The notes under the pieces were generated by a model, which saw only the letters and a program-made list of their open reading frames with translations, did not search any database and was not told the origin of the DNA. 64,000 nt of DNA from Planctomycetota bacterium (GTDB lineage Bacteria > Planctomycetota > B15-G4 > SIAN01). Shown one piece after another: positions 30,075 to 56,625 of this stretch; positions within the stretch are counted from its first letter, which is position 1; every line of letters starts with the position of its first letter. The DNA is taken from positions 1 to 64,000 of the forward strand of contig JANNXA010000033.1 of assembly GCA_031409275.1 (NCBI GenBank). Direction: 5' to 3'. The translations under genes were made by a program, and so were the position numbers.

Positions 30075-31628
30075 ATGGCGAACCGAAGTCGTGGAGTGTG
30101 GGGGCTGCTGCTGCTGGTGACGGCGCTGGCGCTGATCTGGCCGGCGGCCTGGGCGGCGCGGATGGCGAAGAGCGTCGCGTGCAACCTGCTCTGGGGCCAC
30201 AGCCCGTCGCCGGTCTGCCTGTGGCATGGCGAGCTGGTGAAAGAAGGGCTCGCGGTCGACAACCTCGAGCGGTCGTTCTCGGTCGGCTACGCCGACTTGA
30301 CCGGCTCCGGACCGCTGAAGGCGTTGCTGCAGGTGCGCGATCCGGCCGGCGGCTACCTCGGCAACGGGCTCTACCCCTCCAACCTGAACACTGCGTACTA
30401 CGCGGGGGTGTGGGTGCAGCCGTCGGGCACGGCGTGCTACACCATCGGCACCTACTTCACCGGCAACTCGGCGAACCCCAACAACCTGATCCTGTCGCGA
30501 TGGACGCCCGGCAGCAGCACGCCGTGGTCGACGCCGGTCAACGCGCAGACGGCCACCTTCACTCCCACCGCGCTCGGCTTGGGCGGGAACCGGACTTGGG
30601 GCTGTCGCGTGATCTGGGCGTCGGCGACCGACCTCTTCATCTCCGGCTGCAGCGACGTCGAGCTCTTCGTCGCGCGGGTCGACAAGGCGACGCTCTCCCT
30701 GGTGACGAGCTGGGGCTTCAGCGGCGTGCAGTCCTTCGGCTGCAACACGCCCAACGGCGTCCCGGTCCACGCGATTCCGGGTGCGCTCCTGGCGTTCAAT
30801 TTCTATCCGCAGGCGTTCATCGAGCTGGTGGGCAACAACCTCTTCCTCGGCGGCACGTTGATGAACGACCTGCCGGGCGCACCGATCGATTTCGACTTCG
30901 TGGTGGCCAAGTACAACGCGGCCAATGGCGCGTCGACGCCGTTTGGTGTGCAGTACAGCCGCGTGCTCGGCAACGACTACATGAAGGCGATGGCGGCGAC
31001 CGGTCAGGGGGTCTACACGGTGGGCACGCTCAACCCCTCGGGCAACCCGCAGATGCAGCTGCTGGCGTGGCAGCAGGACGGGACGCTGCGGCCCCCTTTC
31101 TGGACGCTCGGGACGACCCCGAGCCGTGGCAATGACGTCGAAGCGGAGGTGGTCGGCACCACGTGCCACATCTTCGTCGGCGGCTACAACCTCACGACCG
31201 GCGCGACGTGGAGCTTCACCCACGCCACGAACTACAACGCGCCGGTGACGCTGCCGGTGCAGTGGCGTGGCGGCGGCAGCGCGCCCAACCCGAAGCTCTA
31301 TGGACCGGGCGCGACAGTGATCGACGAGGTCTATGACATCGGACTCGGCAGCGGTCTCTTCGCCAACCACCTCTTCGCGGTCGGCGGCGTGCAGTTCGGC
31401 TTCGGCCAGTACGGGCAGCCGCTCCAGTGCATCGCGCCGAGCGGCGCGGTGATGTTCAGCAACAACCCGAGCCCGCTTGCCCCCGCGACCGATCACGCCC
31501 ACGCCGTCGTCTACAGCAGCGCGAGCCTCGGCACCGTCTACACCCACGGCACCGCGTTCGATCCGGGCGGCAGTTTCCTCCTCTGCCCGAACCACTTCGC
31601 CGCGCGGAGCAGTCGCTACAAGCCGTGA
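30075..31628 (+). CDS. Secreted hypothetical beta-rich (propeller-like) protein
   Basis: AGGAG RBS; signal peptide; DFVVAKYN, WGFSG motifs; rich in N/T/G/Y. Confidence 0.75.
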   Translation: MANRSRGVWGLLLLVTALALIWPAAWAARMAKSVACNLLWGHSPSPVCLWHGELVKEGLAVDNLERSFSVGYADLTGSGPLKALLQVRDPAGGYLGNGLYPSNLNTAYYAGVWVQPSGTACYTIGTYFTGNSANPNNLILSRWTPGSSTPWSTPVNAQTATFTPTALGLGGNRTWGCRVIWASATDLFISGCSDVELFVARVDKATLSLVTSWGFSGVQSFGCNTPNGVPVHAIPGALLAFNFYPQAFIELVGNNLFLGGTLMNDLPGAPIDFDFVVAKYNAANGASTPFGVQYSRVLGNDYMKAMAATGQGVYTVGTLNPSGNPQMQLLAWQQDGTLRPPFWTLGTTPSRGNDVEAEVVGTTCHIFVGGYNLTTGATWSFTHATNYNAPVTLPVQWRGGGSAPNPKLYGPGATVIDEVYDIGLGSGLFANHLFAVGGVQFGFGQYGQPLQCIAPSGAVMFSNNPSPLAPATDHAHAVVYSSASLGTVYTHGTAFDPGGSFLLCPNHFAARSSRYKP

Positions 31629-31964: not shown

Positions 31965-34900
31965 GTGCGGGTCAGGCGAGCCGCATCGCAGAGAGGGTGC
32001 GGGGGGGGGGCACATGAACTTGCTCCTGCATGCGCTCCAGAGAGTTGCCTGCAATCCGGCGAAGGAGTCGAACGCCGGCGGCTGATTCGCGGGCGGCGGC
32101 TGGCCACCACCGGATGGCTTCTGGGGTGCGTCATCGATGCACGCGGTCAGGTCGTCGAGAGCTATGCGGTGAACGACGGCGTCAACGCGGTCCACGACAA
32201 GGAGTTCGGCGAGTTCGCCGCGGACCTCGGCGGATCGATCGAGTTCTCGCGCTATGCGAATGCCAGTCACGCCTTCGCAAGCCTATGGGACCCGTGGGCG
32301 GCGGCGCACGGCTTGCCGAACTTCGAGCAGATGATGCGTCAAGGGTTGAACGATCTCGCGTGGCTCGATAGCGAACTCACCATGCCGCGCGGCACGCCTC
32401 CGGTCTCTTCGCCGTTTGGCAACTCGATCCTGCCGCTGTTTGGCACCGACGTGATCATCGATCCGCGCGCGGTGGACTCCATGTGCGCCCCGTTGGCACT
32501 TCCCATTGCGGGCGACGCCTGGTGGAACGAGCCTGGTGGCGGGAAGCGCAAGATTCTGTACTGGCCCTACATCATCAACGGTGGGGCGATGATGATCTGC
32601 ATGGGCGCCGACTCGGCGGGCAACCCGATCGCGGATCCTGACCCCGAGACCTCGCTCAGCACGTCGCGATCGTTGATGGTCTTCGCCTACTACAACCACC
32701 CGAGCGATTTCGGGACCAACCCCAACCGCTTCGACGACAACGACATCCGCCGGGAGTTCTCGAAGAGCTTCGATCTCGGCGCGCCCTTCCCCGAGGCGTG
32801 GTGCGCCTTCCCATCGAGTGGCGGCCAGTGGTTGGGTCCAAGCGAGCAGGCGATCGAGGCGGGCGACATCGTCCTCATTGTTCGCGAGAACTACGGGATG
32901 CAGATCGCGGCGTCGATCGCGCGAACGCACGAGGCGGTGCTCTTCACGAAGAACTACTGGGCGAACGGCCACATTCCGGGTCGAGACGGGCTCTCCTTCA
33001 CCCTCGACGGCGCCTACCCGCATGGTCGCTCGTTCGGGCAGGCGATGGCGATGTTCCTCTGCCTGGCGCAGCCGCAGCTCTACAAGGGCGCGGTCGATTG
33101 GATCACCAGCGACCTCGGGTTCGAACTCGGCGACTTCACGGAGCTTCAAGGCGATTTCAGCGCCGGACTCGATCGCTACGCGTTCAAGACCTCGACCAGC
33201 AACTTCTTCCCCGATATCTACGCGCTGGTCGATCAGCTCGGCTGTCGCTTCGACGAGCCGCTGCCCGGCGTGCAGCCATGGGACCTCGCGGCGTTTTCCA
33301 TGAACCGTCGGCCGGGAAGCATCTCGATGCCGATGGATGGGCACGCCGGTGAGCACGAGTTCCAATATCCAGGCTCCTGGAGCAAGGCCGACGCGACGCT
33401 CAACTCGAACATGGTGATGACCCCCATGCGCAACCGTGCGCATGAAGAGGCGCTTGGCGTCATCCCAGGGTTCAATGAGTATTCGATCTTCACCGGCCAC
33501 GAGTGGTACGACATCAAGCGGTCGGGCGCGACGGCCGGCACGCGCACGCCTGTGGTGCCGACGGCGACCGCGCCTGCGAAGCCTTATCCCGATCCCTACT
33601 CGCACACCCTGCGCCATGTCGATCCGCCGGGCGGGCCGATCTTCGGCTCGACGACAGCGATCAAGCAGCTGCTGACGAAGATCGACCTGCGCAATGGAAT
33701 GGACCAGCCAGGCGTCAATGGTGACTTCCTCGGCTCGGGCTACCGCAAACAGGCGAACACGGCAGGGTTGATGGCCATCGGCCAGGGCACCTGGCCGGGG
33801 TATCGCGACCAGATGCGGGTCGGCGATCTCGACAACGATGGAAGGATCGAGGTGGTGTTCGGGAACCTCGAAGGGTACGTGCATGTGCTCGAGTTCGCGG
33901 GCGATCGCAACCCGGCCGACCCCTATCGCCTGATCGACGAATGGCAGAGTCCTCGTCTTGGTCGCGCGGTCTTCGCGTGCGACGCTTTCTTCAATGCCAG
34001 TCTGGCGCAAATGTTCTTCGCGGATGGCCGCGGCCAGATCTGGCGAATCAACGCGACCGGCGCAGATACCTACGCCGTCCAGGGCGGTGCACCTCTTGCA
34101 TCCCCCGATCCGCCCGGCGCGGGCGGAAAGTGGCTCTACGACGGGTCGACGCCGCTCCTGCTGGTTGGCGACTTCGACGGCGCGAATGGTGCAACGCGCG
34201 AGATCTTGGTGCAGAACAAGTACTGGGATTGGTCATTGTTCTCGCTGAACGGGACACGCATTGGGACAACAGGTGCCAATTCAGGACGACTGGCGCGATC
34301 GACGCGGACCGCGGGGCCGACCGATGCGTTCCTCTACGAGGCCGATGGAGTTGACGCGTTTCGTGAAGTCTTGTTGTCGAGCACGAATGGGCTCGTCTGG
34401 AATTTGGATCGCAAGAACTTTGGCGGCAGTTGGTCCTGGGACAAACCAGTTTCGCGAGTCCTCCCCTTCCACAAGTGCACCTATTCCAAGGTCGTCCCCT
34501 GCAACTTCAGCGGGACCGCGAGCCCGCCGACTTATCTGCTGGCATTCACCAGCGATGCAGATCGCACGCTGGCGAGTGCCGGAGCGAGCGCTCACGTCAT
34601 CGAACTCTGGGACGTCACGATTCCGATCAGCCCGACCCTCGTCGCGCACACCGATTCGGCCGTCGAGTTTGACGAAAGCCTCTCCTTCGCCTGGATCCGC
34701 AAGCCAGGCACCAGCAGTTCGTTCTTCCGCTTCGCCATCGCCAATCGCACCCGCATCGAGACTCACTGGGTGACCCTTGGCACGCCGGGAGGCTCGACCA
34801 CCTCCTTCACGCCGTCCGGCTCCAAGTGGAAGGACATCGTGCCAGGACCCGACCCGTTGCTTGGTCCGATGCAGAGCCATCCGTGCATCACGGCGCTCGA

Positions 34901-36461
34901 CTATGCACTTCTGCAAACCGGTGCTGGAACGGGCGTCGGCGGGGCGCTGATCTACGCCGATTGCAGAGGGCGCATCTACGTTTGCAGCGCGGACAACGTC
35001 GATGCGCAAGACGGCCAGCTCGTCTCGCTGCGCAAGTCGGATGAGGAGCTCGCGGACTCGTTCGGGAATCTCCCAACGCCGCCGGGAACCGAGCCTCCGT
35101 ACGAAGCGGTGCCATGGCCATCGAATCGGACGCTGGCACAAGTTCCTGCGTGTGACTTCGTGCAAGGCGGGAACGGCCAAGGCGACCTCTATTTCGCGGA
35201 GTTCGCGCTGCCTGCCCTGAAGAACCCCGGCAATCGCTACCGGCTTGGCAAGATCGGCATCGGCAGTGGCGGCGTGAACGCCTGGACCCCCTACTTGCAG
35301 CGGGTCGAGAGCGGCTTGGAATGGGATGCGCTCAACCCTGGTTGGACACGGACGTTGCAGGTGGAGGATGTCGACGGCGATTCAGTTCTCGAGATCAGAG
35401 CCTTCACTGAAACCGGCGTCGCCTACTACGACGCAGATCACGTTGCCGTACGGGAGTTCCAGACCGCCTCCTTCGCGCCGAACTGGATGGCGGGAGGGGC
35501 GAAGCTGAGCGGCTTCACGCTGTTCAACAGCCTCAGGACTTTCGATGAGGTTTCGGTCTCCTTGACGCAGGGAGGTCGCGTTTTCGAGCGCGAGGCTGGG
35601 CGTCGCGCCGGCGACTACTGGTACCTCGGCACCTTCCAGCCCCCCGTCGACTCGAGTTGGCCGTTCGGGAACTTCAGCGCTGGCTCTGGGGCTTGGTGGT
35701 ACCCGCGGGTCGGCACCGTGATGGACGGGCAGATCGCCAGCAACCTGCAGTCGGCCCATTCACTGAGCCTCGGTACGTCGATGAAGGTGGCGCAGATCCG
35801 TCTGGAGTCGGGCAACAACGTGCCGCTCAAACCTCACCTGGTGGTCGGCACGACGGGTGGCTACGTCCACGTGATCCAGGCGACTGGCGCACCGCCGTTG
35901 CAGGGGGATACAGCCGGGCAGCGGGCGGCGACTCTGCGCTGCTTGTCGCCGTACATGGGCACCTACATCGTGGGCCTCGATGTCGGCAACCTCGATAGCG
36001 ACCCCGATGAAGAGATCGTGTGTGGCAACTGGATCGACCAGGGAACCTACGTCGACTGGGCTGCCGGGAACAGCGCCAAGAACCGTGCGAGCATTTCCAT
36101 CCTCGATCCGGTTCCAGGAGGTAGCGCCGCGATCATGAGCCGGACGATCTTGAATGGCGATGACCTGCTTGGCGCCGGCTTCGGCATCGGCTCGGGCGTC
36201 ACCGGAGTCAAAATCGATGACGTCAACGGCGATGGGACCAAGGAAATCTGGTGCAGCGACGCGGCGGGCTACCTCTACCTGTTCCAGAAAGACGCCTTCG
36301 GATGGCACTGCGTTTACCGTTCAGAAAGTTTCGGCAGCTATCCGGGCTTCTACAACAACCTGCATCCGATCAAGGGTCCCGCTGGCACGACGACGAAGCT
36401 GATCGTCCAGTCGCCGGGATACGCACTGCTCTTCTCGGTGCTGACTGGGAGTGTGCCATGA
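31965..36461 (+). CDS. Large secreted protein: alpha/beta-hydrolase-like module plus FG-GAP repeats (start uncertain)
   Basis: GRSFG elbow; GDLDNDGRIE, GDFDG, EDVDGD, GNLDSDPDEE, DDVNGDGTKE repeats; no clear start codon. Confidence 0.75.
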   Translation: MRVRRAASQRGCGGGAHELAPACAPESCLQSGEGVERRRLIRGRRLATTGWLLGCVIDARGQVVESYAVNDGVNAVHDKEFGEFAADLGGSIEFSRYANASHAFASLWDPWAAAHGLPNFEQMMRQGLNDLAWLDSELTMPRGTPPVSSPFGNSILPLFGTDVIIDPRAVDSMCAPLALPIAGDAWWNEPGGGKRKILYWPYIINGGAMMICMGADSAGNPIADPDPETSLSTSRSLMVFAYYNHPSDFGTNPNRFDDNDIRREFSKSFDLGAPFPEAWCAFPSSGGQWLGPSEQAIEAGDIVLIVRENYGMQIAASIARTHEAVLFTKNYWANGHIPGRDGLSFTLDGAYPHGRSFGQAMAMFLCLAQPQLYKGAVDWITSDLGFELGDFTELQGDFSAGLDRYAFKTSTSNFFPDIYALVDQLGCRFDEPLPGVQPWDLAAFSMNRRPGSISMPMDGHAGEHEFQYPGSWSKADATLNSNMVMTPMRNRAHEEALGVIPGFNEYSIFTGHEWYDIKRSGATAGTRTPVVPTATAPAKPYPDPYSHTLRHVDPPGGPIFGSTTAIKQLLTKIDLRNGMDQPGVNGDFLGSGYRKQANTAGLMAIGQGTWPGYRDQMRVGDLDNDGRIEVVFGNLEGYVHVLEFAGDRNPADPYRLIDEWQSPRLGRAVFACDAFFNASLAQMFFADGRGQIWRINATGADTYAVQGGAPLASPDPPGAGGKWLYDGSTPLLLVGDFDGANGATREILVQNKYWDWSLFSLNGTRIGTTGANSGRLARSTRTAGPTDAFLYEADGVDAFREVLLSSTNGLVWNLDRKNFGGSWSWDKPVSRVLPFHKCTYSKVVPCNFSGTASPPTYLLAFTSDADRTLASAGASAHVIELWDVTIPISPTLVAHTDSAVEFDESLSFAWIRKPGTSSSFFRFAIANRTRIETHWVTLGTPGGSTTSFTPSGSKWKDIVPGPDPLLGPMQSHPCITALDYALLQTGAGTGVGGALIYADCRGRIYVCSADNVDAQDGQLVSLRKSDEELADSFGNLPTPPGTEPPYEAVPWPSNRTLAQVPACDFVQGGNGQGDLYFAEFALPALKNPGNRYRLGKIGIGSGGVNAWTPYLQRVESGLEWDALNPGWTRTLQVEDVDGDSVLEIRAFTETGVAYYDADHVAVREFQTASFAPNWMAGGAKLSGFTLFNSLRTFDEVSVSLTQGGRVFEREAGRRAGDYWYLGTFQPPVDSSWPFGNFSAGSGAWWYPRVGTVMDGQIASNLQSAHSLSLGTSMKVAQIRLESGNNVPLKPHLVVGTTGGYVHVIQATGAPPLQGDTAGQRAATLRCLSPYMGTYIVGLDVGNLDSDPDEEIVCGNWIDQGTYVDWAAGNSAKNRASISILDPVPGGSAAIMSRTILNGDDLLGAGFGIGSGVTGVKIDDVNGDGTKEIWCSDAAGYLYLFQKDAFGWHCVYRSESFGSYPGFYNNLHPIKGPAGTTTKLIVQSPGYALLFSVLTGSVP
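32001..32010 (+). repeat. G10 homopolymer
   Basis: Ten consecutive G, followed by CAC ATG. Confidence 0.9.
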
Positions 36462-38047
36462 CGCGTCGACTTCTCGTTGCTCCGGCCAGGTTGCTGTGGC
36501 GCCATTGGCTCGAGGCGATTGCGCTTTCAATCGCAATGGCGATGAGCGCGCCATTGGCAGGCGCTCAGCAGACGCTCTGGTACGCCGATTCCGATGTTTC
36601 GATGGAGTTGTTTGGTTTCACAGACGTCGGGCCCGACATCGATGGAGATGGCGCGCCGGAGCTGCTTGTCACGAATCAAATCGAGAGCTGCGTCGGACCG
36701 GCTGACGGTGCGGTTCATCTGTTCTCGACGACTGGTGGCGAGCTGCAGAAGTGGTGCGGTGAAAGCGGCTGGGGGGCGCAAGCGATGTGGGTCGATGACA
36801 TCGACGGCCTTGGTGTCCAAGACTTCGTGGTGACATCGCCTGGTTGGTACGAGCCGACGAAGTGGGGTTGGGAAACTGGCCGTATCCAGCTGATGTCCTT
36901 CGAGACCGGTGCCGTCATTCGCGAGTGGCAAGGCACACAAACCCGCGGATCCTTCGGACAGATCGACATCCTGGAAGATGTCGATGGCGATGGGTTCCGT
37001 GATCTAATGGTTACGGCCTACGGATATGGAGCCAACGGCGAAGGGCAGATCTGGATTTACTCGCTCACCACCGGCTCCGAGATTCGCACTCATGTTGGGC
37101 CATTGCAGTATGCGAATCTTGGTGCTTGGTTCTCAGCGCTCCCTGACGTCGACGGCGACGGCGTTGGTGACTACGCCGCAAGCTGGAACACGATCGCAGC
37201 CCCCGGCTTGAAGGCGCGGGTCTTCTCTGGTGCCACCGGGAATGCGGTGGCGACCTTCGTCGGTACGGCACCCGAGCGACTCGGCCGCTCGTTTTCGACT
37301 TGCAGCGATGTTGACGGTGACGGTCTCCCCGAAGTGATGATGGGTGGCTGGACTGGCATCTCCCTGAAACCGGGCTTTGTCGAGGCGTGGTCGCCAAGGA
37401 GCGGCAACTTCCTCTGGCGCATCGACGGCACCACCGATGGGGAGACGTTTGGCTGGAGCGTGCTGGGTTTGCCCGACATCAACGGCGACGGATACGAGGA
37501 TCTCTTGATCAGCGCGATCGACGATCCACAGCGCGGGAAGCTGGCCGGTCGCGTCGATCTGATCTCCGGCCGCACGCGGCGCGCCTTGTTCCGCTTCTAT
37601 CCGCCGATCAAGGGAGTGGCGGAGTATGGCACCGTGTCCACACCCGGCGCCGACTTCAACGGTGACGGCTTCGTGGACCTCGTGATCGGCACACTCAACG
37701 GGGGGCGCAAGGAGTCGAAAGGAGGCCACGTCGCGATCTACGCCGGCAACGACCTCTGGCTGCAAGCCGAGTCGCCCGACCCTGCCGTTGGCGACACCGT
37801 CGTCGTCGACCTGCGCGGTGGCGAGCCGGGGCTGTTGGGTCTGGTCGCGTTGATCGACCTCGACGGCACGCCGCTCTTCGAGCCGCTCTTGCTCGCCCCG
37901 TTCGACGTCAACGGTGAACTGCAGCTCTGCGCCGACGTCGACTCCAGCGTCAGCGGCATGGAGTTCACGCTGATGGCCTACGCCCAGAACCGTGCCGGCC
38001 GTGGTCCGCTGATGGACGCCACGCCGTTCGTGGTGGTGGTGCAATGA
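36458..38047 (+). CDS. FG-GAP / integrin-alpha-like beta-propeller protein with shared C-terminal domain
   Basis: ATGA overlap; signal peptide; seven D-x-D/N-G-x-G repeats (DIDGDG, DIDGLG, DVDGDG x3, DINGDG, DFNGDG). Confidence 0.9.
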   Translation: MTRRLLVAPARLLWRHWLEAIALSIAMAMSAPLAGAQQTLWYADSDVSMELFGFTDVGPDIDGDGAPELLVTNQIESCVGPADGAVHLFSTTGGELQKWCGESGWGAQAMWVDDIDGLGVQDFVVTSPGWYEPTKWGWETGRIQLMSFETGAVIREWQGTQTRGSFGQIDILEDVDGDGFRDLMVTAYGYGANGEGQIWIYSLTTGSEIRTHVGPLQYANLGAWFSALPDVDGDGVGDYAASWNTIAAPGLKARVFSGATGNAVATFVGTAPERLGRSFSTCSDVDGDGLPEVMMGGWTGISLKPGFVEAWSPRSGNFLWRIDGTTDGETFGWSVLGLPDINGDGYEDLLISAIDDPQRGKLAGRVDLISGRTRRALFRFYPPIKGVAEYGTVSTPGADFNGDGFVDLVIGTLNGGRKESKGGHVAIYAGNDLWLQAESPDPAVGDTVVVDLRGGEPGLLGLVALIDLDGTPLFEPLLLAPFDVNGELQLCADVDSSVSGMEFTLMAYAQNRAGRGPLMDATPFVVVVQ

Positions 38048-43527: not shown

Positions 43528-44895
43528 TCAGCGCGGCCCGCCCTCGGGGCAGCACCGCTCGAGCGCGCTCTCGCGCTGCATCTGCAGGTGGCGCAGGCGC
43601 TCGGCTGGCGAGGGCGGCGCGAAGGTGACCGGATGCGACAACGGTGGCGCCCGCTCGCGAAGCTCGCCGTAGATCGCGTCGAGCGCGGCCGCGTGGTCGG
43701 CGAAGGTGGGGGGCGGCGGCGGGCGCGCGGCGGCGAGCTGCGTTCGCAAGCGCGATTCGTCGAGGCAGCGGAGCAGGTCGCGCTCCAGCGCCGCGATGTC
43801 GCCGGCGCGATGGACGAGCGCACCGCCGCCGGCCCGCCGCGCCGGCGCACCGCTGTCGGAGAGCAGCGCCGGGATCCCGAGCTCGAAGCACTCATCGAGC
43901 ACGTAGCCGTGCGTCTCGAGGCAGGTCGAGGGGAAGACGCCGTAGTCGGGCGCGAGCGAGGCCAGCTGCGCGAAGATGAAGGGGCCGTGGAAGGAGATCG
44001 GTGCCGCGCCGGCCAGACCGCGCAACCGCGCTTCGAGCGCGTCGTCGGCGAACGCGCCCAGCAGGTGGAGCTCCGCGGCGACGCCCGGCCGCGCCGCGAG
44101 CGCGCGCGGGAACGCGGCGACCAGCTCGACGACTCCCTTGTGGGCTGCGAGGCGTCCCCAATAGGCGAAGCGGAGCGGGCGATCGAGCGCCGTCGTCGGC
44201 CGCCGCAAGCCATGCGGCGCATAGGGGAGCGGGAGCGCCGTGATCCGATCGCGCGGGAACGCGAGGCCCGCTGCGACCTGCTCGGCGACGAAGTCGGAAA
44301 TCGCCAGCACGGCGCCGGCGCGGTCGAGCTCGGCCAGGAACTGGCGACGATGGAGCTCGATGCCGATCGCGATCTCCTCCGGACGCTCATGGCCAAATCG
44401 GGGCACGCATGCGGCGCAGTTCTCCGTGGAGAGAGCGCGCGTGCACGGAGCGCCGTCGCGATCGACGCGGAAGCAGCGCGGGCACGAGGCGAGGAAGTCG
44501 TGCAGCGAGACGACGGTCGCGATGCCGCGTGCGGCGGCGCGCTCGACCAGGTCGGTCGTCAGGCGCATCCAGTGCTGCACGTGGACGACATCGGGTCGCT
44601 CGCGCTCGAGCAACTCGTCGAAGAGGCGGCCCGCTTCGGGATGCCAGAGCTTCGCGTGGTGGTCGAAGTAGAGGTCGTCGCGCACCAGACGGTGCACGCG
44701 CACGCCCTCGCGCTCCGCCGTCTCGAGGCGCGTCGTCGCGGCGCGCCGCCCGCTGCCGGCGAGGACCACCACGTCGTGGCCGCGCACGCGCTGCGCTGCG
44801 ACGAGAGCGCCGGCGTACGTCTCGACGCCGCCTGGCCCGTCGGGGGCGAAGGCGTTGACGCAGTGGAGGATCTTCAGCGCGGCGCTCGGTGCCAT
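43528..44895 (-). CDS. GT4 family glycosyltransferase
   Basis: GGVE, PDVVHVQH, LHDF…CP, GRLAAHKG, PSTCLETHGYVLDE. Confidence 0.9.
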   Translation of the reverse strand: MAPSAALKILHCVNAFAPDGPGGVETYAGALVAAQRVRGHDVVVLAGSGRRAATTRLETAEREGVRVHRLVRDDLYFDHHAKLWHPEAGRLFDELLERERPDVVHVQHWMRLTTDLVERAAARGIATVVSLHDFLASCPRCFRVDRDGAPCTRALSTENCAACVPRFGHERPEEIAIGIELHRRQFLAELDRAGAVLAISDFVAEQVAAGLAFPRDRITALPLPYAPHGLRRPTTALDRPLRFAYWGRLAAHKGVVELVAAFPRALAARPGVAAELHLLGAFADDALEARLRGLAGAAPISFHGPFIFAQLASLAPDYGVFPSTCLETHGYVLDECFELGIPALLSDSGAPARRAGGGALVHRAGDIAALERDLLRCLDESRLRTQLAAARPPPPPTFADHAAALDAIYGELRERAPPLSHPVTFAPPSPAERLRHLQMQRESALERCCPEGGPR

Positions 44896-44943
44896 GCGCG
44901 CTAGATAGCGCCCCTCCGCCCCCCGCTACCATCCGCCACCACG

Positions 44944-46059
44944 ATGGGCATCCCGACCAAGGACTATGGTCGCCAGCATCGCGCGCTGTGGAGCGAGCTC
45001 GCGGGCGAGATCGAGCGCTGCCTCTTCGGCGACGATCCGGTCCTCGGCGCGGCGGTCGAGGCGTTCGAGCGGGAGCTCGCCGACTACCACGGCGTCGCTC
45101 ATGCCGTCGGAGTGAACTGCGGCACCGACGCGATCGTGATGGCGCTGCGCGGCCTCGGCGTCCGCGACGGCGACGAGGTCGTCACCAGCGCACACACCTT
45201 CAGCGGTGTCGTCAGCGCGATCGTCCAGGCGGGCGGCGTGCCGCGCCTCGTCGAGCCCGAGCGCGAGACCATGGTGGTCGCGCGCGAGGCGCTGCAGGCG
45301 GCCTGCACGCCGCGCACGCGCGCCCTGCTGCCGGTCCACCTCTATGGCCAGCCGATCGACCTGGTCGGGTTGCGCGACTGGTGCACGGCGCGGGGCCTCG
45401 TGCTGATCGAGGATTGCGCTCAGGCGCACGGCGCGCGGCGCCGCGGCCGCAGCCTCGGGTCGTTCGGCCACGCGGCGGCGACCAGCTTCCACCCGAGCAA
45501 GAACCTCGGCGCGTTCGGCGACGGCGGGGCGGTCCTGACCGATGACGCGAACCTCGCGGCCGCGTTGCGCATCCGGCGCCATCTCGGCAAGGCCGGCAAG
45601 TACGAGATGGTGGCGATCGGTCCGAACAGCAAGCTCGACACGTTGCAGGCAGTGCTGCTGCGGGTGAAGCTGCGCCATCTCGACGAATGGGTCGAGCGGC
45701 GCGCCGCGTTGGCCGAGCGCTACCGCCGCGGCCTCGAGGGCGTCGGCGACCTGGTGCTGCCGCTGCCCGTTCGCGAGGCGGGGGCGCGCCACGCGTGGCA
45801 CCTCTACGTGGTCCGCTCGGCGCGGCGCGACGCCCTGCGCGAGTTCCTCGCGGAGCGCGGCATCAAGACGGGCATGCACTATCCGATTGCGGCGCACGAG
45901 CAGCCGGCGCTGCGCGACCGCTGCCTCGGCGGCCCGTTCCCGCTGGCGGCGGAGCTTGCCCGCACGGTCGTCTCGTTGCCGCTTTCACAGGAGCTGACCG
46001 AGGCGGAGATCGACGTCGTGATCGACGCGACTCGGCGCTTCTTCGCGACGGCCCCATGA
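44944..46059 (+). CDS. DegT/DnrJ/EryC1/StrS PLP-dependent aminotransferase
   Basis: PVHLYG, EDCAQAHG, SFHPSKNLGAFGDGG, NSKLD. Confidence 0.95.
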   Translation: MGIPTKDYGRQHRALWSELAGEIERCLFGDDPVLGAAVEAFERELADYHGVAHAVGVNCGTDAIVMALRGLGVRDGDEVVTSAHTFSGVVSAIVQAGGVPRLVEPERETMVVAREALQAACTPRTRALLPVHLYGQPIDLVGLRDWCTARGLVLIEDCAQAHGARRRGRSLGSFGHAAATSFHPSKNLGAFGDGGAVLTDDANLAAALRIRRHLGKAGKYEMVAIGPNSKLDTLQAVLLRVKLRHLDEWVERRAALAERYRRGLEGVGDLVLPLPVREAGARHAWHLYVVRSARRDALREFLAERGIKTGMHYPIAAHEQPALRDRCLGGPFPLAAELARTVVSLPLSQELTEAEIDVVIDATRRFFATAP

Positions 46060-47303
46060 GCGAGCGCGTCGTCTTCGTCGGCGGCGGCGTCTTCGCGGTG
46101 CGCTGGTTCGAGGCGCTCGCGGCCACGGCCGCTCCCGATGAGCTTGACCTGCGGTTGGTGGGACGCGACAAGTCGCGCCTCCATACGGTCGTCGCGCAGG
46201 CGCGCGCGCAGCTCGCGACGTCGCGGCCGAACTGGCGACTGGCGGCGGCGACCGATTTCGCAGCCGGCGTGCGTGGCGCGACGGTCGTCGTGCTGATGGC
46301 GCGGATCGGCGGACTCGAGGCGCGCGCCGCCGACGAAGCGCTCGCGCTGCGCCACGGGATGGCCGGCGACGAAGGGCTCGGAATCGGCGGGACCGCGAAC
46401 GGCTGGCGCACGTTGCCGGTCGTGCGCGCCTGGGCGGCGACGCTGCGGCGCGAGGCGCCCGACGCGTGGGTGGCCAACCTGATGGCGCCGCTCGGCATGA
46501 CGACGCGCGCGTTGCAGGAGGCGGGCGTCGCGGCGACCGGACTCTGCGAGCTGCCGCTGCTGACGCTGCAGGGTTGGCTCGCGAGCGTTCACGAGGAGCT
46601 CGGTGCAGCGCACGGCACCGACGACCTCGACTACGCCGGGCTCAACCATCTCGGCTTCTTCTGGCCGCGCAGCGAGCGCGGCGCCAAATGGCTCGCGGCG
46701 CTGGCGCGCGCCGGCGCCATCGACCCGCAGCTGCTCGCCACACTCGGCGGCGCACCGCTCCACTATTACGAGGCGCTGATCGAGCCGGCCGTCGGCGCGC
46801 GACGCGGCCGCTCGCGGCCGAACGGTCGCGCGCTCGCGTTGATTGAGCTGCGCGAGCGCGCGCTGGCGCGGATGCGCGCCGCACCGGGCGAGCCGGTGAC
46901 GGCGCTCGCCGAGCGGTCGACGCCATGGATCGATCGGCTGCTGGCTCCGACGGTCGCCGCGCTGCTCGCGGGTGAGCGGCTCGACGGCTTTTTCGACCTC
47001 CGCAACGGCGGCCTGCTGCCGAGCGTCTCCGCCGACGCGATCGTCGAGCTGCGGGCGACGCTCGATCGGGGCGGGGCGGCGGCCCGCGCGCCGCTCGCCA
47101 TGCCGGCGCCGATCGGCAAGTTCATCGCCGCCGCGGCAGAGTGGGAGGAGCGGAGCTATCGAGCTGCGCGGGATCGCGATCGAGCCGCGCTTCGCGAGGC
47201 GCTGCTCGCGTGGCCCGGTCCGTGGGAGCGGCGCCTCGGCGCACCGCTCGACGCGCTCGTCGACACCATCGCGACCGTCGAGCCGCCGGAGGACCCGAAG
47301 TGA
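46056..47303 (+). CDS. Family 4 glycoside hydrolase-like NAD/Mn-dependent protein (divergent)
   Basis: VGGG, RIGG…R..DE…G.EG.G.GG…RT.P, GLC, GLNH; ATGA overlap. Confidence 0.85.
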   Translation: MSERVVFVGGGVFAVRWFEALAATAAPDELDLRLVGRDKSRLHTVVAQARAQLATSRPNWRLAAATDFAAGVRGATVVVLMARIGGLEARAADEALALRHGMAGDEGLGIGGTANGWRTLPVVRAWAATLRREAPDAWVANLMAPLGMTTRALQEAGVAATGLCELPLLTLQGWLASVHEELGAAHGTDDLDYAGLNHLGFFWPRSERGAKWLAALARAGAIDPQLLATLGGAPLHYYEALIEPAVGARRGRSRPNGRALALIELRERALARMRAAPGEPVTALAERSTPWIDRLLAPTVAALLAGERLDGFFDLRNGGLLPSVSADAIVELRATLDRGGAAARAPLAMPAPIGKFIAAAAEWEERSYRAARDRDRAALREALLAWPGPWERRLGAPLDALVDTIATVEPPEDPK

Positions 47304-48262
47304 AACTGGGAGTTTGCGCACAGGCGCTACCGCGCACCTCGCTGGTCGCGGCGCTCGACGCGGCGCGCGACCTCGGGTTCGAGGCGATCGAGCTGCCGGT
47401 CGACGCCGCGAGCCCCTGGATCGACCTCGATGCCGCGCTGGCCGGCGGATGGCGGGTGATCGCCGCGGCGCTGCGTGAGCGAGGGCTCTCGCTGAGCGCG
47501 CTCTCGAACCATCAGGAGGGGCAGCTGCTGCTCGGGCCGCACGGCGAGGAGACGGCGGCGATCCATCGCGGCACTCCCGACGAGCAGGTCGCCTACGCGC
47601 TCCATCGTCTCCGCCAGACCGCCGAGCTGGCGCGCCGGCTCGAGGTCGACGTCGTCTGCGGCTTCACCGGCTGCTCGAACTGGACGCGCTTCTTTCCGTG
47701 GCCGCTGCGCGACGGCTGGGAGCAGATGGAGGCGCCGTTCCGCGAGCGGATGCGGCCGCTGCTCGACGACTTCGAGCGCCTCGGCGTCCGCTTCGCCCAC
47801 GAGTGCCACCCGCTGCAGTTCGCCTACAACACCGAGACGGCGGCGCGCGCGGTCGAGCTGCTCGACGGCCACCCAGCGTTCTGCTTCAACCTCGATCCCG
47901 CCAATCTGCTCCTGGTCGGGGTCGATCCAGTCCTGTTCGCGGTGGAGCACGGCGCGCGCGTCGTCCACGTGCACGGCAAGGACGGCGAGCTGGTCGCCCA
48001 TCACGCCGCGCGCTCCGGCCTGCTGGCGCACGGTCCCTGGCATCGATCGGGACGCGGCTTCCGCTTCCGCGTGCCGGGTTGGGGCGACGTGCCTTGGAGG
48101 CGCCTGATCAGCGAGCTGCAGCTCGCTGGCTTCCACGGCGTCATCGCGGTGGAGCACGAGGATCCGACCATGTCGGAACGAGAGGGGCTGCTGCAGGCGA
48201 TTCGCTTCCTGCAGCCGCTGCTGTTGCGTGATCCGCCGCCGGGGGAGCGCCGCTGGTGGTGA
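47300..48262 (+). CDS. Sugar phosphate isomerase/epimerase (xylose-isomerase-like TIM barrel)
   Basis: HECHP, NLDPAN, HVHGKD, PGWGDVPW, VEHED; GTGA overlap. Confidence 0.9.
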   Translation: MKLGVCAQALPRTSLVAALDAARDLGFEAIELPVDAASPWIDLDAALAGGWRVIAAALRERGLSLSALSNHQEGQLLLGPHGEETAAIHRGTPDEQVAYALHRLRQTAELARRLEVDVVCGFTGCSNWTRFFPWPLRDGWEQMEAPFRERMRPLLDDFERLGVRFAHECHPLQFAYNTETAARAVELLDGHPAFCFNLDPANLLLVGVDPVLFAVEHGARVVHVHGKDGELVAHHAARSGLLAHGPWHRSGRGFRFRVPGWGDVPWRRLISELQLAGFHGVIAVEHEDPTMSEREGLLQAIRFLQPLLLRDPPPGERRWW

Positions 48263-50166
48263 GCGACTCGTCCTCGGGCCGGAAGCCGCCGCGCGACGAG
48301 TTGCGCGACCAACCGAGCGACGAACCGCTCGATGTGGTGGCGCGCCTCGCCGACCACCAGCAGAACCTGTGGCCCGCGCCGCCGACACCGTCGCGGGTCG
48401 CTTTGCTGGCGTTGCCCTTGCCGCGAATCGTCGACGCACTGCTTGGCGCGGAGCGGGACACGGCGCGCTCCAACTGGCTCGCCGATCGCGCCGCGGAACT
48501 CGGAGGCGGCGACGGCCCGCTGCCGATCGTCGATCTTGGTGGTGAGTTCGCGCGGCTCGGCACGGCGAGCGCGACGTGTTCCCGGTTCGACGCGCGCCTT
48601 GACGCGCTCGGCGCGAGCGGCGTTCGTCGACTGATCGTGGTCGGCGGGCAGGAGAACCGTGGCTTCGCGCGAGCCGTCGCGGCGCGCTGGTCGGGCGAGC
48701 TGCAGCCGCTGCAGTGGCCGCTCGATGCTTGGCTGGCGAACGTGCCGGCGCTGCGCGACGACGAGCGGCCGCCGCCGGACGGTCGGCAGGCCGTACGCGC
48801 ATCCGATCCGGCTCGCCGTCTCGGTCCGTGGTGGGGTTTTGTGCCACCGCGCGCGCTTCTCGGGACGCGCGAAGGCGCGGAGCTGCGTGCCGCATGGCAG
48901 GCCTACTGGTGCGCGCGCGGCCGGCCCGACGCGGTGCGCTGCGCCGTCCTCGGGCTCGACTCCGACCTCGAGGCCGCGCTGCAAGTCGCGTCGTGCTCCT
49001 CCGATTCGCCGCCGCCGTCCGACCGTGCGGGCGCGCTCGCGCGCCACGTCGCCATCACCGGCCTCGACGGCGCCGGCAAGTCGACCCACGCCGCTCGCCT
49101 CGCCGCCGCGCAGGCGGCGCGCGGACGGCAGGTTGCCGTGGTGAAGATCTATCGGCAGGGCGCGTTCCTCGAGCTCGCCGGCGAGCTCGGCGCGCGAACG
49201 CGCCGCGGGGCTCCGCTCGCCGCCTTCCGCGTCTCCCGGCTCGTCAAGCTGATCGACAGCGCGCGCGTGCTCCGCGATCGCCTCGCGCCGATCGCCGGCA
49301 GCTGCGACCTGCTGCTGCTCGATCGCTGGCTCGAGACGCATGTCGCCGCGGCACGCAGCCAGCTCGGCTGGGATCTCTCCGGCCATCCGCTGCTCGCCGC
49401 GTTCCCGCACGTCGATCGGCGCTACTGGCTCGAGCTCGATCCCGCGCAGGCGATCGCGCGGCTCGATGCGCGGCCGGAACGTCGGAGTGCCGACGAGCAC
49501 GCGACTGGCTTGCGCGGCTACGCCCGCGAATTCAACCGCCTCGCCGTGGGGACGGGCGAGCGGCGCCTCGCCGCCAGCGCGCCGATCGAGGAGAACGCGG
49601 CGCGGCTCCTCGCCGAGGTCGACACGCTGCTCGGTCCGCCGCGCGCCGGCGGAGCCGTCGTGGCGATCGAGAATGCGGCGCCGCCGCGACTGCCTTTCGA
49701 TCCCGCGCGCGAGCGCTGCGCGGTCCACCTCGGCGCGGCGACCGACGGGAGCGAGCTCGGTCGCGACCTCTTCGCGCTGCGCGCCGATCTGCGTCAGCGG
49801 TCAGGCGCGGTGCTCGACGGGCTGCCGGAGGCGACATGGATCGAGGCGTATGCGGCGGAGCTGCTGTTGGCGCTCGCGACGACGCGGCCGCGCCGCGCCG
49901 CCGTCGCGCTGTGGCCCGCGGCGTTGGCGCTGATGGAGGAGCTCGGCGACCTGCCGATGCTCGACGAGCTCGCGCGGATGGTCGAGGCCGAGACGATCGT
50001 CGGGTCGTGGGGCGATCGCGTTGAGGTCGAGCGTGCCGCGGCGGAGGCGTTCCGCGCGTTTGGCTTCGCGCCGCGTGGCGCCGAACGGTTCGCCGCGAGC
50101 TACGGCGACTCGTTGCGCGCGCTGTCGCGAGCGTGGAGTGCCGCGCCGATCGCGCCCGCCTCGTAG
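48259..50166 (+). CDS. Multidomain protein with central thymidylate-kinase-like P-loop domain
   Basis: TGLDGAGKST, LLDRW, LDPAQAIARL..R; flanking regions unrecognised; GTGA overlap. Confidence 0.75.
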   Translation: MSDSSSGRKPPRDELRDQPSDEPLDVVARLADHQQNLWPAPPTPSRVALLALPLPRIVDALLGAERDTARSNWLADRAAELGGGDGPLPIVDLGGEFARLGTASATCSRFDARLDALGASGVRRLIVVGGQENRGFARAVAARWSGELQPLQWPLDAWLANVPALRDDERPPPDGRQAVRASDPARRLGPWWGFVPPRALLGTREGAELRAAWQAYWCARGRPDAVRCAVLGLDSDLEAALQVASCSSDSPPPSDRAGALARHVAITGLDGAGKSTHAARLAAAQAARGRQVAVVKIYRQGAFLELAGELGARTRRGAPLAAFRVSRLVKLIDSARVLRDRLAPIAGSCDLLLLDRWLETHVAAARSQLGWDLSGHPLLAAFPHVDRRYWLELDPAQAIARLDARPERRSADEHATGLRGYAREFNRLAVGTGERRLAASAPIEENAARLLAEVDTLLGPPRAGGAVVAIENAAPPRLPFDPARERCAVHLGAATDGSELGRDLFALRADLRQRSGAVLDGLPEATWIEAYAAELLLALATTRPRRAAVALWPAALALMEELGDLPMLDELARMVEAETIVGSWGDRVEVERAAAEAFRAFGFAPRGAERFAASYGDSLRALSRAWSAAPIAPAS

Positions 50167-51020
50167 CCGCTGCGCGCCCGCTCCACGCGCGTCGCCGTGC
50201 CGATCTCCGCCATCGCGTCGCGTTGCATCGCCGCTTCCACGGCGGAAACGAAGCCGGAGTCGAGCTCGACGACGCCGCCGCCGAGCACCAGGAGCGGCAG
50301 CGCCAGCAGGTTGGTCGCGCTCGCCAGCGCGCCGCCGAGCGCAGCCGCCGCCGTCGCGAGGGCCGCGGCGACGCGCGGGGCGTCCGCTACGGCGGCGTCC
50401 GCGAGTCCGCCCTTCGCCAGTCCGAGCTGGCGCTCGATCGCGCCACCCGACGCGATGGCGCCGATGCAGCCGCGCCGTCCGCACGCGCACTCGGGGCCGT
50501 TGCGATCGACGGAGAGGTGGCCGATTTCGCCGGCGAGACCGCCCTGCCCCGGCCAGAGTTCGCCGCGCAACACCAGGGCGCCGCCGATGCCCGTGCCGAC
50601 CGCGAGGAAGAGGAAGTCGCGATCGGCGCCCTCGCGGACGGCGAGCTCGGCGCGCGCCGCTTGATGGACGTCGTTGTCGAGGCAGACCGGCAGCGCGAGC
50701 CGCTCGGCCAGCTGCGCCGCAAGCGGCACCTCGCGCCACTCGCGCAGGATCACCGAGCTGCGCGCGACGCCGCGCGCCGAATCGACAAGGCCGGGGAATC
50801 CGATGCCCGCTGCGCGCGCCCGGTGAGTGGGCGCCAGCGCCGCGAGCTGCTCCGCCAGCGCCGCCATCGCCTCGACCACGCGAGCCGGCGAGCCGGCGGG
50901 GGTCGCGACGCGCTGCTGGGCGACGATGCGGCCGGCCGCGTCGACCAGCGCGGCGAGGAGCTTCGTCCCGCCGAGGTCGAATCCGAAGGTCGCGAGCCCG
51001 CCGCCGTGCTCAGCCGGCAT
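50100..51020 (-). CDS. ROK family kinase
   Basis: DLGGTK, GFPG, DND, GTGIGGA, AGEIGH, CACGRRGC. Confidence 0.92.
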   Translation of the reverse strand: MPAEHGGGLATFGFDLGGTKLLAALVDAAGRIVAQQRVATPAGSPARVVEAMAALAEQLAALAPTHRARAAGIGFPGLVDSARGVARSSVILREWREVPLAAQLAERLALPVCLDNDVHQAARAELAVREGADRDFLFLAVGTGIGGALVLRGELWPGQGGLAGEIGHLSVDRNGPECACGRRGCIGAIASGGAIERQLGLAKGGLADAAVADAPRVAAALATAAAALGGALASATNLLALPLLVLGGGVVELDSGFVSAVEAAMQRDAMAEIGTATRVERARSGYEAGAIGAALHARDSARNESP

Positions 51021-52161
51021 GCGCAACCCGAGCGCGGGGGCGAGGCTCCGTCCGCGCCATCGCGGCCGAGACGGCAGCGGCGAGCTCCGCGCCGTCCACT
51101 TCGTCGATCGTCACCGACGTGGCGGAGGTCGGCAGGACGTAGTGGAGCCGGTTGCCGCGCACCAGGCGGATCGCCGCAAGCCGGTCGAGCGCTGCGCACA
51201 GCCGCTCCGGCGCGACGGGCGGCGGAAGCTCGAAGCGGGCGAGCAGTGCGACGATGCGGTCGCGGTCGATTTCCGTGCAAAGGCCGCGGGCGCGGGCGAG
51301 CTCGAGGGCGACGATCAGCCCCCACGCGACCGCTTCGCCGTGCAGGATCCCCTCGTAGCCGAGCTCGGTCTCGAGCGCGTGGCCGAAGGTGTGGCCGAGG
51401 TTCAGCGGGCGGCGCAGGTCGCGCTCGTACGGGTCGCCGGCCAGCAGCTCGATCTTCTTCGCCGCCGAGCGGGCGACGACTTTCGTCAGCGCCGCGGGGT
51501 CGCCCGCGAGCAGGCGACGCGCGTCGCTCTCGAGCGTCTCGAGGAGGGGCAGGTCGCCGATCATCGCGACCTTCACCGACTCGGCGAGACCGGCGGCGAG
51601 CTGACGTCGATCGAGCGTGTGCAGCGTCTCCGGGTCGATCCAGACGTGCTGCGGATGGTGGAACGCTCCGAGGAAGTTCTTCGCCCACGGCGCGTTGACG
51701 GCGACCTTTCCGCCGATGGAGGCGTCGTGCTGCGCGAGCAGCGTGGTCGGCACGTTGGCGTACGCGATGCCGCGCATGTAGGTCGCGGCGACCATGCCGC
51801 CGAGGTCGCAGACGACGCCGCCGCCGACGTTGACGATCACGCCGCGCCGATCGAGGCCGGCGGCTTGCAACTCGCCGACGAGCCGCTGCCACTGCTCGAC
51901 GCTCTTCGACGCCTCGCCCGCCGGCACGACGTGGAGCGTGGCGATCCGCCCGTTCGCATGCAGGGCGGAGCGAAGCGGTTGCGCGTAGAGCGGCGCGACG
52001 CCGTCGTCGCTCAGCAGCGCGAGGCGAGCGCCCGGGAAGCGCTCGTCCAGCAGCGCCGGCAGCTCGCCGAGAAGGCCGCGCCGGATCTCGACCGTGTAGC
52101 GACGGTGGGCATCGGCCGATACCTCGAGCTTGGAACGCGGCTCCATCGGCTCAGCCTCCAT
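51010..52161 (-). CDS. Sugar-phosphate cyclase of the DHQS superfamily (possibly a sedoheptulose-7-P cyclase)
   Basis: GEASK, GGGVVCD, RG, PTTLLAQHDASIGGK, KN, E..K, LNLGHTFGH, HGEAV; lacks the C-terminal DKK; alternative start 52146. Confidence 0.88.
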   Translation of the reverse strand: MEAEPMEPRSKLEVSADAHRRYTVEIRRGLLGELPALLDERFPGARLALLSDDGVAPLYAQPLRSALHANGRIATLHVVPAGEASKSVEQWQRLVGELQAAGLDRRGVIVNVGGGVVCDLGGMVAATYMRGIAYANVPTTLLAQHDASIGGKVAVNAPWAKNFLGAFHHPQHVWIDPETLHTLDRRQLAAGLAESVKVAMIGDLPLLETLESDARRLLAGDPAALTKVVARSAAKKIELLAGDPYERDLRRPLNLGHTFGHALETELGYEGILHGEAVAWGLIVALELARARGLCTEIDRDRIVALLARFELPPPVAPERLCAALDRLAAIRLVRGNRLHYVLPTSATSVTIDEVDGAELAAAVSAAMARTEPRPRARVAHAG

Positions 52162-55062: not shown

Positions 55063-56625
55063 ATGCACGCCACCCATTCGATCCCCGCCACGAGGAAGCT
55101 CGCGATCGCGGCGTACGCGGTCGGGATCCTTGGCCTTTCGAGCCGCTCCGCCGCTGGCCAAGCGACCGAGCAGCAGTCGATCGCACCCGCGATCGCCAGC
55201 TGGTCGCAGTACTTCGGCAAGGCACTGGCGGTGAGCAACGACTACCTGGTCGTCGGCGCGCCGCTGCGCGCATCGCCGATCCCGTTCGTCGTCCCCGGCG
55301 GCGCCGACGTCTTGCGCCGCGATCCGGTCACCGGCCTCTGGCACGCGGAGGCGAGCCTGTCCGGCAGCACTGCGGGCAACGGCGCGGCGTTCGGCGCGGC
55401 CGTCGCGGTCGATGGCGACGTCGTCGTGGTCGGCGCGACCGGCCAGGCGTCGTCGACGGCCGCTCGTGCCGGTGTCGTCTACGTGTTTCGCCGCGACGCG
55501 GCCACCGGATCGTGGATCGAGGAGCAGGAACTCGAGGGGAGTGCGTCGGGCCTGGACGGCCTGTTCGGCGCGTCGGTGGCCATCGACGGCGACGTGATCG
55601 TCGTCGGGATGCCTGGCTATGCGAGCAGCACCGGCGCGGCCTTCGTGTTCCGTTATCAGCCGGCGTCGAGCGTGTGGGTCGAGGAGGCCTTGCTGCTCGA
55701 TCCCAACGGTTTCGCCGGTGATCGAGCCGGCCTGGATGTTGCGATCGATGGCTCGACGATCGCCGTCGGTTCGCCGATGCAGGGCACGCTGCCTTACCCG
55801 ACGGGAACGGTCGGCGTCTGGACCGCCAGCGGAACGAGCTGGACGCAGGCGCAGGAGCTGACGCCGAGCAGCGCGACCACGACACCGCTGCGGCTCGGCA
55901 CGTCGCTGGAGCTGCGCGGCAATCAGCTGCTCGTCGGCGCGCCGGGCGAGTCGAACGCCACGACGCAGTACATCGGCGCCGCCTACCTCTTCGAGCGCGA
56001 CGGCTCGACGTTCAGCCAGACCGCGCACTTCGAGCCACCGGCGACGTACTACAACCTCAACTTTGGCCTTGATGTCGCCGTGAATGGCAACACGGTCGTG
56101 ATCGGCCAGCCGATCGACTGGGTGAATCCGGCGATCTCCGGCTCGGCGTGGGTCTTCCGCCGTCGAACCGCCAGCAAGCCGTGGGTCGCGGATCAGATGC
56201 TGATCCACGCCGGCGGCGGCCCCGACGACCAGTTGGGTGCCACGGTCGCGATGAGCGATCACCACATCGTGCTCGGCGCGCGCTACTCGAACAAGTACGG
56301 CCAGGACGAGGGCCTCGTCGCGAGCTACGACAAGGAGGAACTCTCGCTGTCGATCTCGCCGCGCTACCCGGCGCCGGACGCGACGATCGACCTCGAGGCG
56401 CACCGCGGGAATCCGGGCGAACTGATCCTGATCGCCGTCGAAGAGATCAGCGGCGCGCAGCTCTTCATTCCGCTGCTCACCGACGTCTTCCAGGCGAACT
56501 ACGCCTACGCGGTGCAGGACAGCGCGCCCAACCCGGCGCTCGGCCTCTCCGTCGGCGTGCGCGCCTACAAGCTCAGCGCGACCGGCAAGCTGGTGGCGTC
56601 GAGCCTCGAGTACGTCGATCTGTGA
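55063..56625 (+). CDS. FG-GAP (VAxDGD..VVGA type) beta-propeller protein with shared C-terminal domain
   Basis: Signal peptide; repeats FGAAVAVDGDVVVVGA, FGASVAIDGD, G.AYVF; alternative start 55027. Confidence 0.9.
   Translation: MHATHSIPATRKLAIAAYAVGILGLSSRSAAGQATEQQSIAPAIASWSQYFGKALAVSNDYLVVGAPLRASPIPFVVPGGADVLRRDPVTGLWHAEASLSGSTAGNGAAFGAAVAVDGDVVVVGATGQASSTAARAGVVYVFRRDAATGSWIEEQELEGSASGLDGLFGASVAIDGDVIVVGMPGYASSTGAAFVFRYQPASSVWVEEALLLDPNGFAGDRAGLDVAIDGSTIAVGSPMQGTLPYPTGTVGVWTASGTSWTQAQELTPSSATTTPLRLGTSLELRGNQLLVGAPGESNATTQYIGAAYLFERDGSTFSQTAHFEPPATYYNLNFGLDVAVNGNTVVIGQPIDWVNPAISGSAWVFRRRTASKPWVADQMLIHAGGGPDDQLGATVAMSDHHIVLGARYSNKYGQDEGLVASYDKEELSLSISPRYPAPDATIDLEAHRGNPGELILIAVEEISGAQLFIPLLTDVFQANYAYAVQDSAPNPALGLSVGVRAYKLSATGKLVASSLEYVDL

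Follow-up and report, generated by a model that had tools for sequence, protein, structure and literature searches.

A putative surface-tethering beta-sandwich domain, mostly C-terminal, on diverse predicted exported proteins of a Planctomycetota lineage

Among the described systems compared here, the C-terminal domain (CTD) of T9SS cargo in Bacteroidota (TIGR04183 / PF18962) has a solved structure, reported as a seven-stranded Ig-like sandwich that follows a disordered linker of 9 residues and is removed by PorU (PMC4804311). The tail domain described here resembles it in the seven-stranded Ig-like sandwich predicted for subtype A, in being present dozens of times in a genome on cargo that has signal peptides and belongs to the same families, and in occupying the same slot on an FG-GAP_2 propeller, but differs from it in that the planctomycete superfamily includes N-terminal copies and subtype A lacks a flexible linker. 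PEP-CTERM, MYXO-CTERM and GlyGly-CTERM are likewise cargo-independent C-terminal tags, but they consist of a short motif, a membrane helix and a basic tail and are processed by a membrane protease, whereas the present tail is predicted to fold as a beta domain and to have no membrane helix. The dockerin tails (PF00404) of other Planctomycetota are also small terminal modules in tens of copies per genome, with a distribution complementary to that of the tail; the dockerin fold, however, is a calcium-binding helical module unlike the tail, and PF00404 has 0 matches in the genome studied here. Integrin alpha shares an FG-GAP propeller with an Ig-like domain (thigh) directly after it, while the tail is cargo-independent and terminal. 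Judged from these comparisons, the tail may work like known terminal anchoring or sorting domains, yet it appears to be a member of no tested family. No description of the tail domain was found in the titles and abstract beginnings that the literature searches returned, and no occurrence of 'secret' was found in passages of the Saltatorellota preprint (10.1101/817700). The tail domain is real and, as far as searched, undescribed in the literature and in curated families.

The window, that is, the whole stretch of 64,000 nucleotides analysed (assembly GCA_031409275.1, contig JANNXA010000033.1, positions 1 to 64,000; the genome is G000 hereafter), contains two genes with this tail, both on the + strand. 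Both open reading frames translate as the first-pass annotation had claimed, and their separation, given there as about 17 kb, was measured as 17.0 kb. Gene 1 (P0001, 36458..38047, 529 aa) encodes a signal peptide, a 7-bladed integrin-alpha-type FG-GAP propeller and a subtype A tail of 99 aa (37748..38047), which was delimited by profile and model and is predicted to form a seven-stranded Ig-like sandwich. Gene 2 (P0002, 55063..56625, 520 aa) encodes a signal peptide, an FG-GAP_2 propeller with seven Pfam stretches and a subtype A tail of 96 aa (56335..56625), delimited by BLASTP, profile and alignment. The signal peptides that had been noticed on both proteins look cleaved (SPI) and end before Gln, by heuristic and by eye; they are predicted to span 36 aa in gene 1 (36458..36565, cleavage before QQ) and 32 aa in gene 2 (55063..55158, cleavage before Q).

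The earlier hand count of 22 identities over the first 78 tail residues, aligned without gaps from 37748 and 56335, is exact, and 0 of 20,000 shuffles reached 22 identities (mean 11.5, maximum 21) when the best of 11 offsets was scored per shuffle. The two proteins are not full-length paralogues, in agreement with the original claim, as BLASTP of the whole proteins returned a single significant segment that covers the last blade strand and the tail (residues 407-515 versus 401-509, 29 of 109 identical, E 1e-7). The propellers had also been described as built of different repeats; they do match separate Pfam families (PF01839/PF13517 versus PF14312), but both consist of FG-GAP repeats and are thus distant relatives, not unrelated folds. 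Neither tail has any Pfam or NCBIfam match, and for the window proteins no PF00404 (dockerin) match was present in the Pfam scan and no membrane helix was called. The closest homologue of gene 2 in a named genome comes from a Planctomycetota MAG and is 79% identical, and other named homologues also place the organism among the planctomycetes. Directly upstream of gene 1 lies a 1,430-aa ORF (32169-36461, +, start uncertain) that gave a weak FG-GAP_3 match only and bears no tail; its stop codon and the start codon of gene 1 share bases (ATGA), and the two genes are probably co-transcribed. Other features of the window include an exported 510-aa beta-rich protein with neither Pfam match nor tail (30096-31628, +) and a cluster of glycosyltransferase, dehydroquinate-synthase-like, radical SAM/SPASM, nucleotidyltransferase and NUDIX genes (43528-54764), which is possibly a pathway for a cyclitol or sugar-derived metabolite.

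Modelled alone, the subtype A tail of gene 1 is all-beta with seven strands (pLDDT 96.3), and the statement that both tails end on a beta-strand holds for this one, from its model. The structure search that had been proposed returned Ig-like matches, the best of which reached Z 11.2 (rmsd 2.5, 89 residues aligned); the matches listed are all generic Ig folds, with no T9SS CTD among them. The PDB sequence search gave WD40-repeat artefacts only, with 0 passing stretches, and the homodimer prediction for subtype A scored 0.02, which counts neither for nor against. In the subtype A alignment (A1), strand C shows six consecutive, mostly hydrophobic columns followed by a conserved I-D-G-x-P-L-F hairpin turn, and the long C-C' hairpin of the gene 1 tail (37835..37903, +) is, from the model and the column statistics, a candidate binding face. 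The hydrophobic hairpin tip is present in subtypes A and B, and the tail is more hydrophobic than its own cargo in nearly every protein compared (26/28 for A, 45/46 for B and 7/7 for C). In the model of the mature two-domain product of gene 1 (pLDDT 91.6, pTM 0.90), the tail begins about 3 residues past the last blade strand, without a linker, and the propeller aligns with that of integrin alpha-V (Z 37.0, rmsd 2.7, 368 residues aligned).

The first-pass annotation had anticipated that an HMM of the two tails would find many matches, nearly always terminal and on diverse signal-peptide proteins, and such was the outcome. When the HMM was iterated to convergence over all six-frame ORFs of this genome, subtype A ended 33/33 matching frames, a total that takes in three contig-end fragments and three degenerate or truncated copies. 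The domain scan of the cargo covered 30 frames, three short fragments being left out, and FG-GAP repeats were detected in 28 of them (26 with FG-GAP-type repeats only, one with an added S8 protease domain and one with ASPIC), with LamG and DUF6923 in the two others. A library search with subtype A returned 1,375 clusters with E values of 0.001 or lower; among the best 150 of these, 143 are full-length and end at most 5 residues from the C-terminus, and the remaining seven comprise four spurious repeat proteins and three with 13-53 extra residues. Cargoes elsewhere in the library include PD40 and SBBP propellers, clostripain and two unknowns, and the clear copies of subtype A are all C-terminal. 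The Atlas neighbours are unnamed Planctomycetota clusters only (0.85-0.89 for A, 0.97 for B), and the plasmid collection gave no match. The tree of subtype A tails groups largely by cargo class, so gene duplication explains much of the copy number. Two tandem arrays of subtype A genes, one of five double-propeller genes with a deletion remnant (G000:C5:9520-29902) and one of five FG-GAP_2 genes (G000:C9:133047-140823), show recent duplication. The 29 ASPIC/UnbV (CRTAC1-like) C-termini of this genome cluster separately and lack the tail, and several of these proteins have lipoprotein-like signals; one ASPIC protein has subtype A appended.

When 4,089 filtered ORFs were clustered by their last 110 residues, subtype A joined a larger group. 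Profile comparison gave probabilities of 87-95% for A-B and 81% for A-C, with reversed controls below 1%; the small subgroup B3 reached only 1% in one comparison, further comparisons giving 91%. The A-B link is remote, as it rests on profile probability and not on strong sequence identity. With merged profiles, the superfamily was found on 109 of the 4,123 predicted genes of this genome (~2.6%), a count made at a cut-off of E 0.01 that includes weak matches and fragments. The cargo of subtypes B and C comprises five S8 proteases, M14 and M28 peptidases, a GDSL lipase, an MtrC-like multiheme cytochrome, two CCP/MauG proteins, and PD40, Kelch, LVIVD, BNR and CHRD proteins, with no Pfam match for 22/69. 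The cytochrome (G000:C12:56552-59041, -), which is MtrC/MtrF-like, ends in subtype B and apparently is not a lipoprotein, is a possible surface electron-transfer protein. Different subtypes are found on similar cargo. A PD40 cargo about 50% identical over >400 aa and a Kelch-type cargo 49% identical over 468 aa end in subtype A elsewhere and in B here, and S8 proteases within one genome have an A, B or C tail.

These cargoes bear directly on the idea that the tail serves FG-GAP propellers structurally, as a cap or stalk comparable to the integrin thigh or to a ring-closing strand, and was spread by whole-gene duplication. Such a role would suit the position of the tail directly after the last blade in a confidently predicted arrangement, the match of the propeller to integrin alpha, the prevalence of FG-GAP cargo in subtype A and a tree that follows cargo class. 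Yet the tail folds alone in the model and also occurs on LamG, clostripain, M14, M28 and cytochrome proteins without propellers, its subtypes are swapped on the same cargo, 48 genes with FG-GAP-like motifs in this genome have no tail, and the structural alignments with integrin alpha cover about 370 residues, which is the size of the propeller alone. The non-propeller cargo largely refutes this explanation, and we regard it as very unlikely.

The position of the domain was less uniform across the superfamily than in subtype A. Each of the 109 genes has one copy, which is C-terminal in 100 (~92%), N-terminal in 9 and internal in 0, and the nine N-terminal copies stand directly behind the signal peptide. 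In the distant genome G156, 28 superfamily matches were found in 1.94 Mb (about three quarters of that genome); 22 lie at or near the C-terminus, one of them being a stand-alone domain behind a signal peptide, and six are not C-terminal (four N-terminal, one starting its frame and one apparently internal). The first-pass annotation had named internal positions as a finding that would refute its idea, and this objection applies in part, since homologous subtypes sit N-terminally here and away from the C-terminus in G156, in one case apparently internally. A Kelch pair with the domain at the N-terminus is homologous between the two genomes. Four tandem genes at G000:C9:26035-31192, and one more elsewhere, have the domain N-terminally, followed by an unannotated 200-aa domain with a TQ-x-x-WG motif; a similar domain is, we presume, known from T9SS cargo of Bacteroidota. 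The gene at G000:C47:17394-18206 (-) encodes a signal peptide, the domain and an Asp/Ser-rich low-complexity tail resembling SD repeats, and a G156 protein (L131:3623-7003) has a signal peptide, the N-terminal domain and about 640 residues without Pfam match, by eye a candidate scaffold or lipid-binding protein.

Known anchoring slots were found to be occupied by the tail. Three of the 48 proteins scanned that end in subtype B scored above the cut-off of a choice-of-anchor family, one for choice-of-anchor B (145.5 bits against 100) and two for choice-of-anchor V (129 and 132 against 42); we take these families to be named for carrying varied sorting signals. NF041894, a MYXO-CTERM-anchored family, matches two subtype B cargoes as a homologue below its cut-off. 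In a Rhodothermales homologue of gene 2 the place of subtype A is taken, by eye, by a T9SS-type tail, and its genome encodes SprA together with 82 T9SS-tail matches. These slots weigh against the explanation that the domain is a ligand-binding module, carbohydrate-binding or adhesion-like, through which secreted enzymes are fixed to a substrate outside the cell, and that it plays no part in sorting. Ig-like sandwiches commonly bind ligands, the modelled hairpin is hydrophobic and exposed, either terminus is tolerated and no dedicated machine was found among the profiled candidates, all of which would fit such a module. Binding modules are often internal or repeated, however, whereas the 109 genes here have one copy each and none internal, and the cytochromes, peroxidases, proteases and propellers that carry the domain have no common substrate. 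We consider a purely ligand-binding role unlikely.

By a crude signal-peptide heuristic, the 94 genes with the tail divide into 77 SPI, 1 lipoprotein-like and 16 without a signal, the last being by eye mostly start mis-calls or fragments, compared with 1073 SPI, 194 lipoprotein-like and 1495 none among 2762 other genes. By this crude measure, the cargo has no anchor apart from the tail. One lipoprotein bears a weak copy of the tail. The twin-arginine motif is not enriched (7/102 tail genes versus 271/2743; 0/102 for the strict motif). A small-x-small-Gln motif near the N-terminus was observed in 63/94 tail genes and in 625/2762 others, a background that includes non-exported genes; the motif is reminiscent of the 'Q-rule' of Bacteroidota.

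The restriction of the domain to a lineage, which had been suspected, was supported by profile counts across Planctomycetota and another phylum. Subtype A occurs in 24 of 41 relatives' genomes, with 11-64 matches in the seven other genomes of the same family, and in 5/151 sampled Planctomycetota genomes when at most 33 candidates per genome were scored. Subtype B was found in 41/41 genomes of the order, often with at least 109 matches, and its superfamily profile in 34 of the 151 Planctomycetota genomes, 32 of these 34 with 6 or more matches, so the spread over the phylum is near all-or-none; in the phylum of G183 subtype B was found in 0/61 genomes. Copy numbers are low in family f5 (5-9) and family f48 (0-1). 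The tail-positive genomes may form one clade, in which case the phylogenetic profile would be uninformative. More than two dockerin matches occurred in 0/34 tail-positive genomes, and 11 or more in 13 of the 117 others, a complementarity that is weak because relatives are not independent and kinship confounds it.

The genomes were searched for known export machinery. TIGR04183 (Por_Secre_tail) gave 0 matches in G000, G004 and G156 and 82 in the control G183. SprA (PF14349) was not found in G000 (93% complete), G004, G035 and G155 but was found in the control G183, the additional search via TIGR04189 having no control that rang; PorV (PF19572) was not found in G000, and its control, Bacteroides thetaiotaomicron, rang. 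Remote homology to the T9SS CTD, which had been suggested by eye, was rejected, as a profile of 20 T9SS tails reached a probability of 0.56%, with a score within the range of column-shuffled controls. As judged from gene content, the tail system is not T9SS, since SprA and PorV were not found and the profile likeness is absent.

The dedicated transporter or sortase that was expected to co-occur with the tail was not found among the three candidate genes profiled for co-distribution. Strong matches to the C25 protease occur in 7/34 tail-positive and three tail-negative genomes, with homologues patchy in the phylum. The stand-alone short C25 peptidase of this genome (G000:C30:42223-43635, +) is broken by a stop and a frameshift, and C25 was rejected as the cognate sortase because it is patchy, not co-distributed and broken here. 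A secretin cluster, and a pseudopilin operon that includes a pseudopilin of 1,685 residues, are common to this genome and G156. The T2SS-type cluster at C52:22865-31114 encodes a secretin (Pfam match on the G156 homologue) next to an ATPase, a platform protein and pseudopilins as read from the sequence, and two genes of the pseudopilin operon are present in 34/34 tail-positive and in 33 and 61 of the 117 tail-negative genomes. T2SS is thus available wherever the tail is, but has no specific tie to it; to our knowledge, no common substrate signal has been established for T2SS. The operon of the 1,685-aa pseudopilin-like protein (G000:C51:222390-227447, -) also contains pilin-like genes and an unknown gene of 502 aa; the unknown gene and the giant pseudopilin were rejected as a dedicated machine because they are unspecific (67/151 and 95/151 genomes). 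A beta-barrel heuristic combined with the comparison to the 1.94 Mb of G156 gave DUF5916, DUF481, porins and several unknowns as candidates.

These results allow us to weigh whether a dedicated, undescribed outer-membrane translocon, a T9SS analogue with signal types A, B and C, recognises the tail as a strictly C-terminal export signal that is cleaved off. The share of C-terminal copies, the near all-or-none distribution, and the predicted fold class and propeller slot held in common with the T9SS tail are consistent with it, and a Gln and an Asp that hardly vary on strand F in subtype B (42/43 and 41/43) could be a recognition motif. It is opposed by the N-terminal copies right behind the signal peptide in two distant genomes, including the homologous Kelch pair, and by subtype A having no linker to cut, which together argue against a strict cleavable C-terminal signal. 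The small share of tail-positive genomes with C25 and its broken state here, the lack of SprA or PorV, and the G156 comparison, from which no demonstrably specific outer-membrane candidate emerged with three candidates profiled, point the same way. This explanation seems rather unlikely to us. Retention of the domain is favoured instead by the missing linker, the pTM of 0.90 of the two-domain model, and the N-terminal and stand-alone copies.

The reading that we prefer, with a probability of roughly one half, is that the tail is a retained, position-flexible and cargo-independent module that delivers exported proteins to the cell surface and tethers them there. A superfamily found on about 100 predicted exported proteins and swapped between unrelated cargoes is likely to be a surface tag. 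The lineage-specific export or surface-attachment domain envisaged by the first-pass annotation is in keeping with the terminal position, the diverse cargo, the lineage restriction and the anchor slots, but the N-terminal copies and the lack of a dedicated machine among the candidates do not fit it fully. According to the tethering model, the cargo would cross the inner membrane on its signal peptide, presumably by the Sec route, and the domain, which is observed at the C-terminus and less often at the N-terminus of the mature protein, is predicted to fold there independently. The hydrophobic face of the C-C' hairpin may bind an envelope partner, either an outer-membrane component or the export machine, and the cargo might then pass the outer membrane, for which the T2SS-type apparatus encoded in every tail-positive genome sampled is the most plausible route. 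The uncleaved domain would finally serve as a non-covalent tether that keeps adhesin-like propellers, proteases and cytochromes at the surface. A bolder proposal, which we put forward tentatively, is that the superfamily is the address label of an undescribed export and surface-display system in several Planctomycetota lineages with few or no cultured members, a parallel to T9SS but independent of it, that serves 100+ cargoes per genome with interchangeable labels at either end.

New here are the subtype structure within one genome, the swapping and the N-terminal copies, as well as the finding that T9SS and the C25 protease are excluded. Should the domain prove to be a surface tag, a single profile would be enough to list the surface proteome of a wide range of little-studied planctomycetes (~2.6% of predicted genes here and at least 109 matches in many relatives), with their proteases and adhesin-like propellers and an MtrC-like cytochrome. 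Such a tag would also offer a handle on how folded proteins are moved past the outer membrane without T9SS, and the domain would then be either a portable recognition domain for T2SS or the mark of a new machine.
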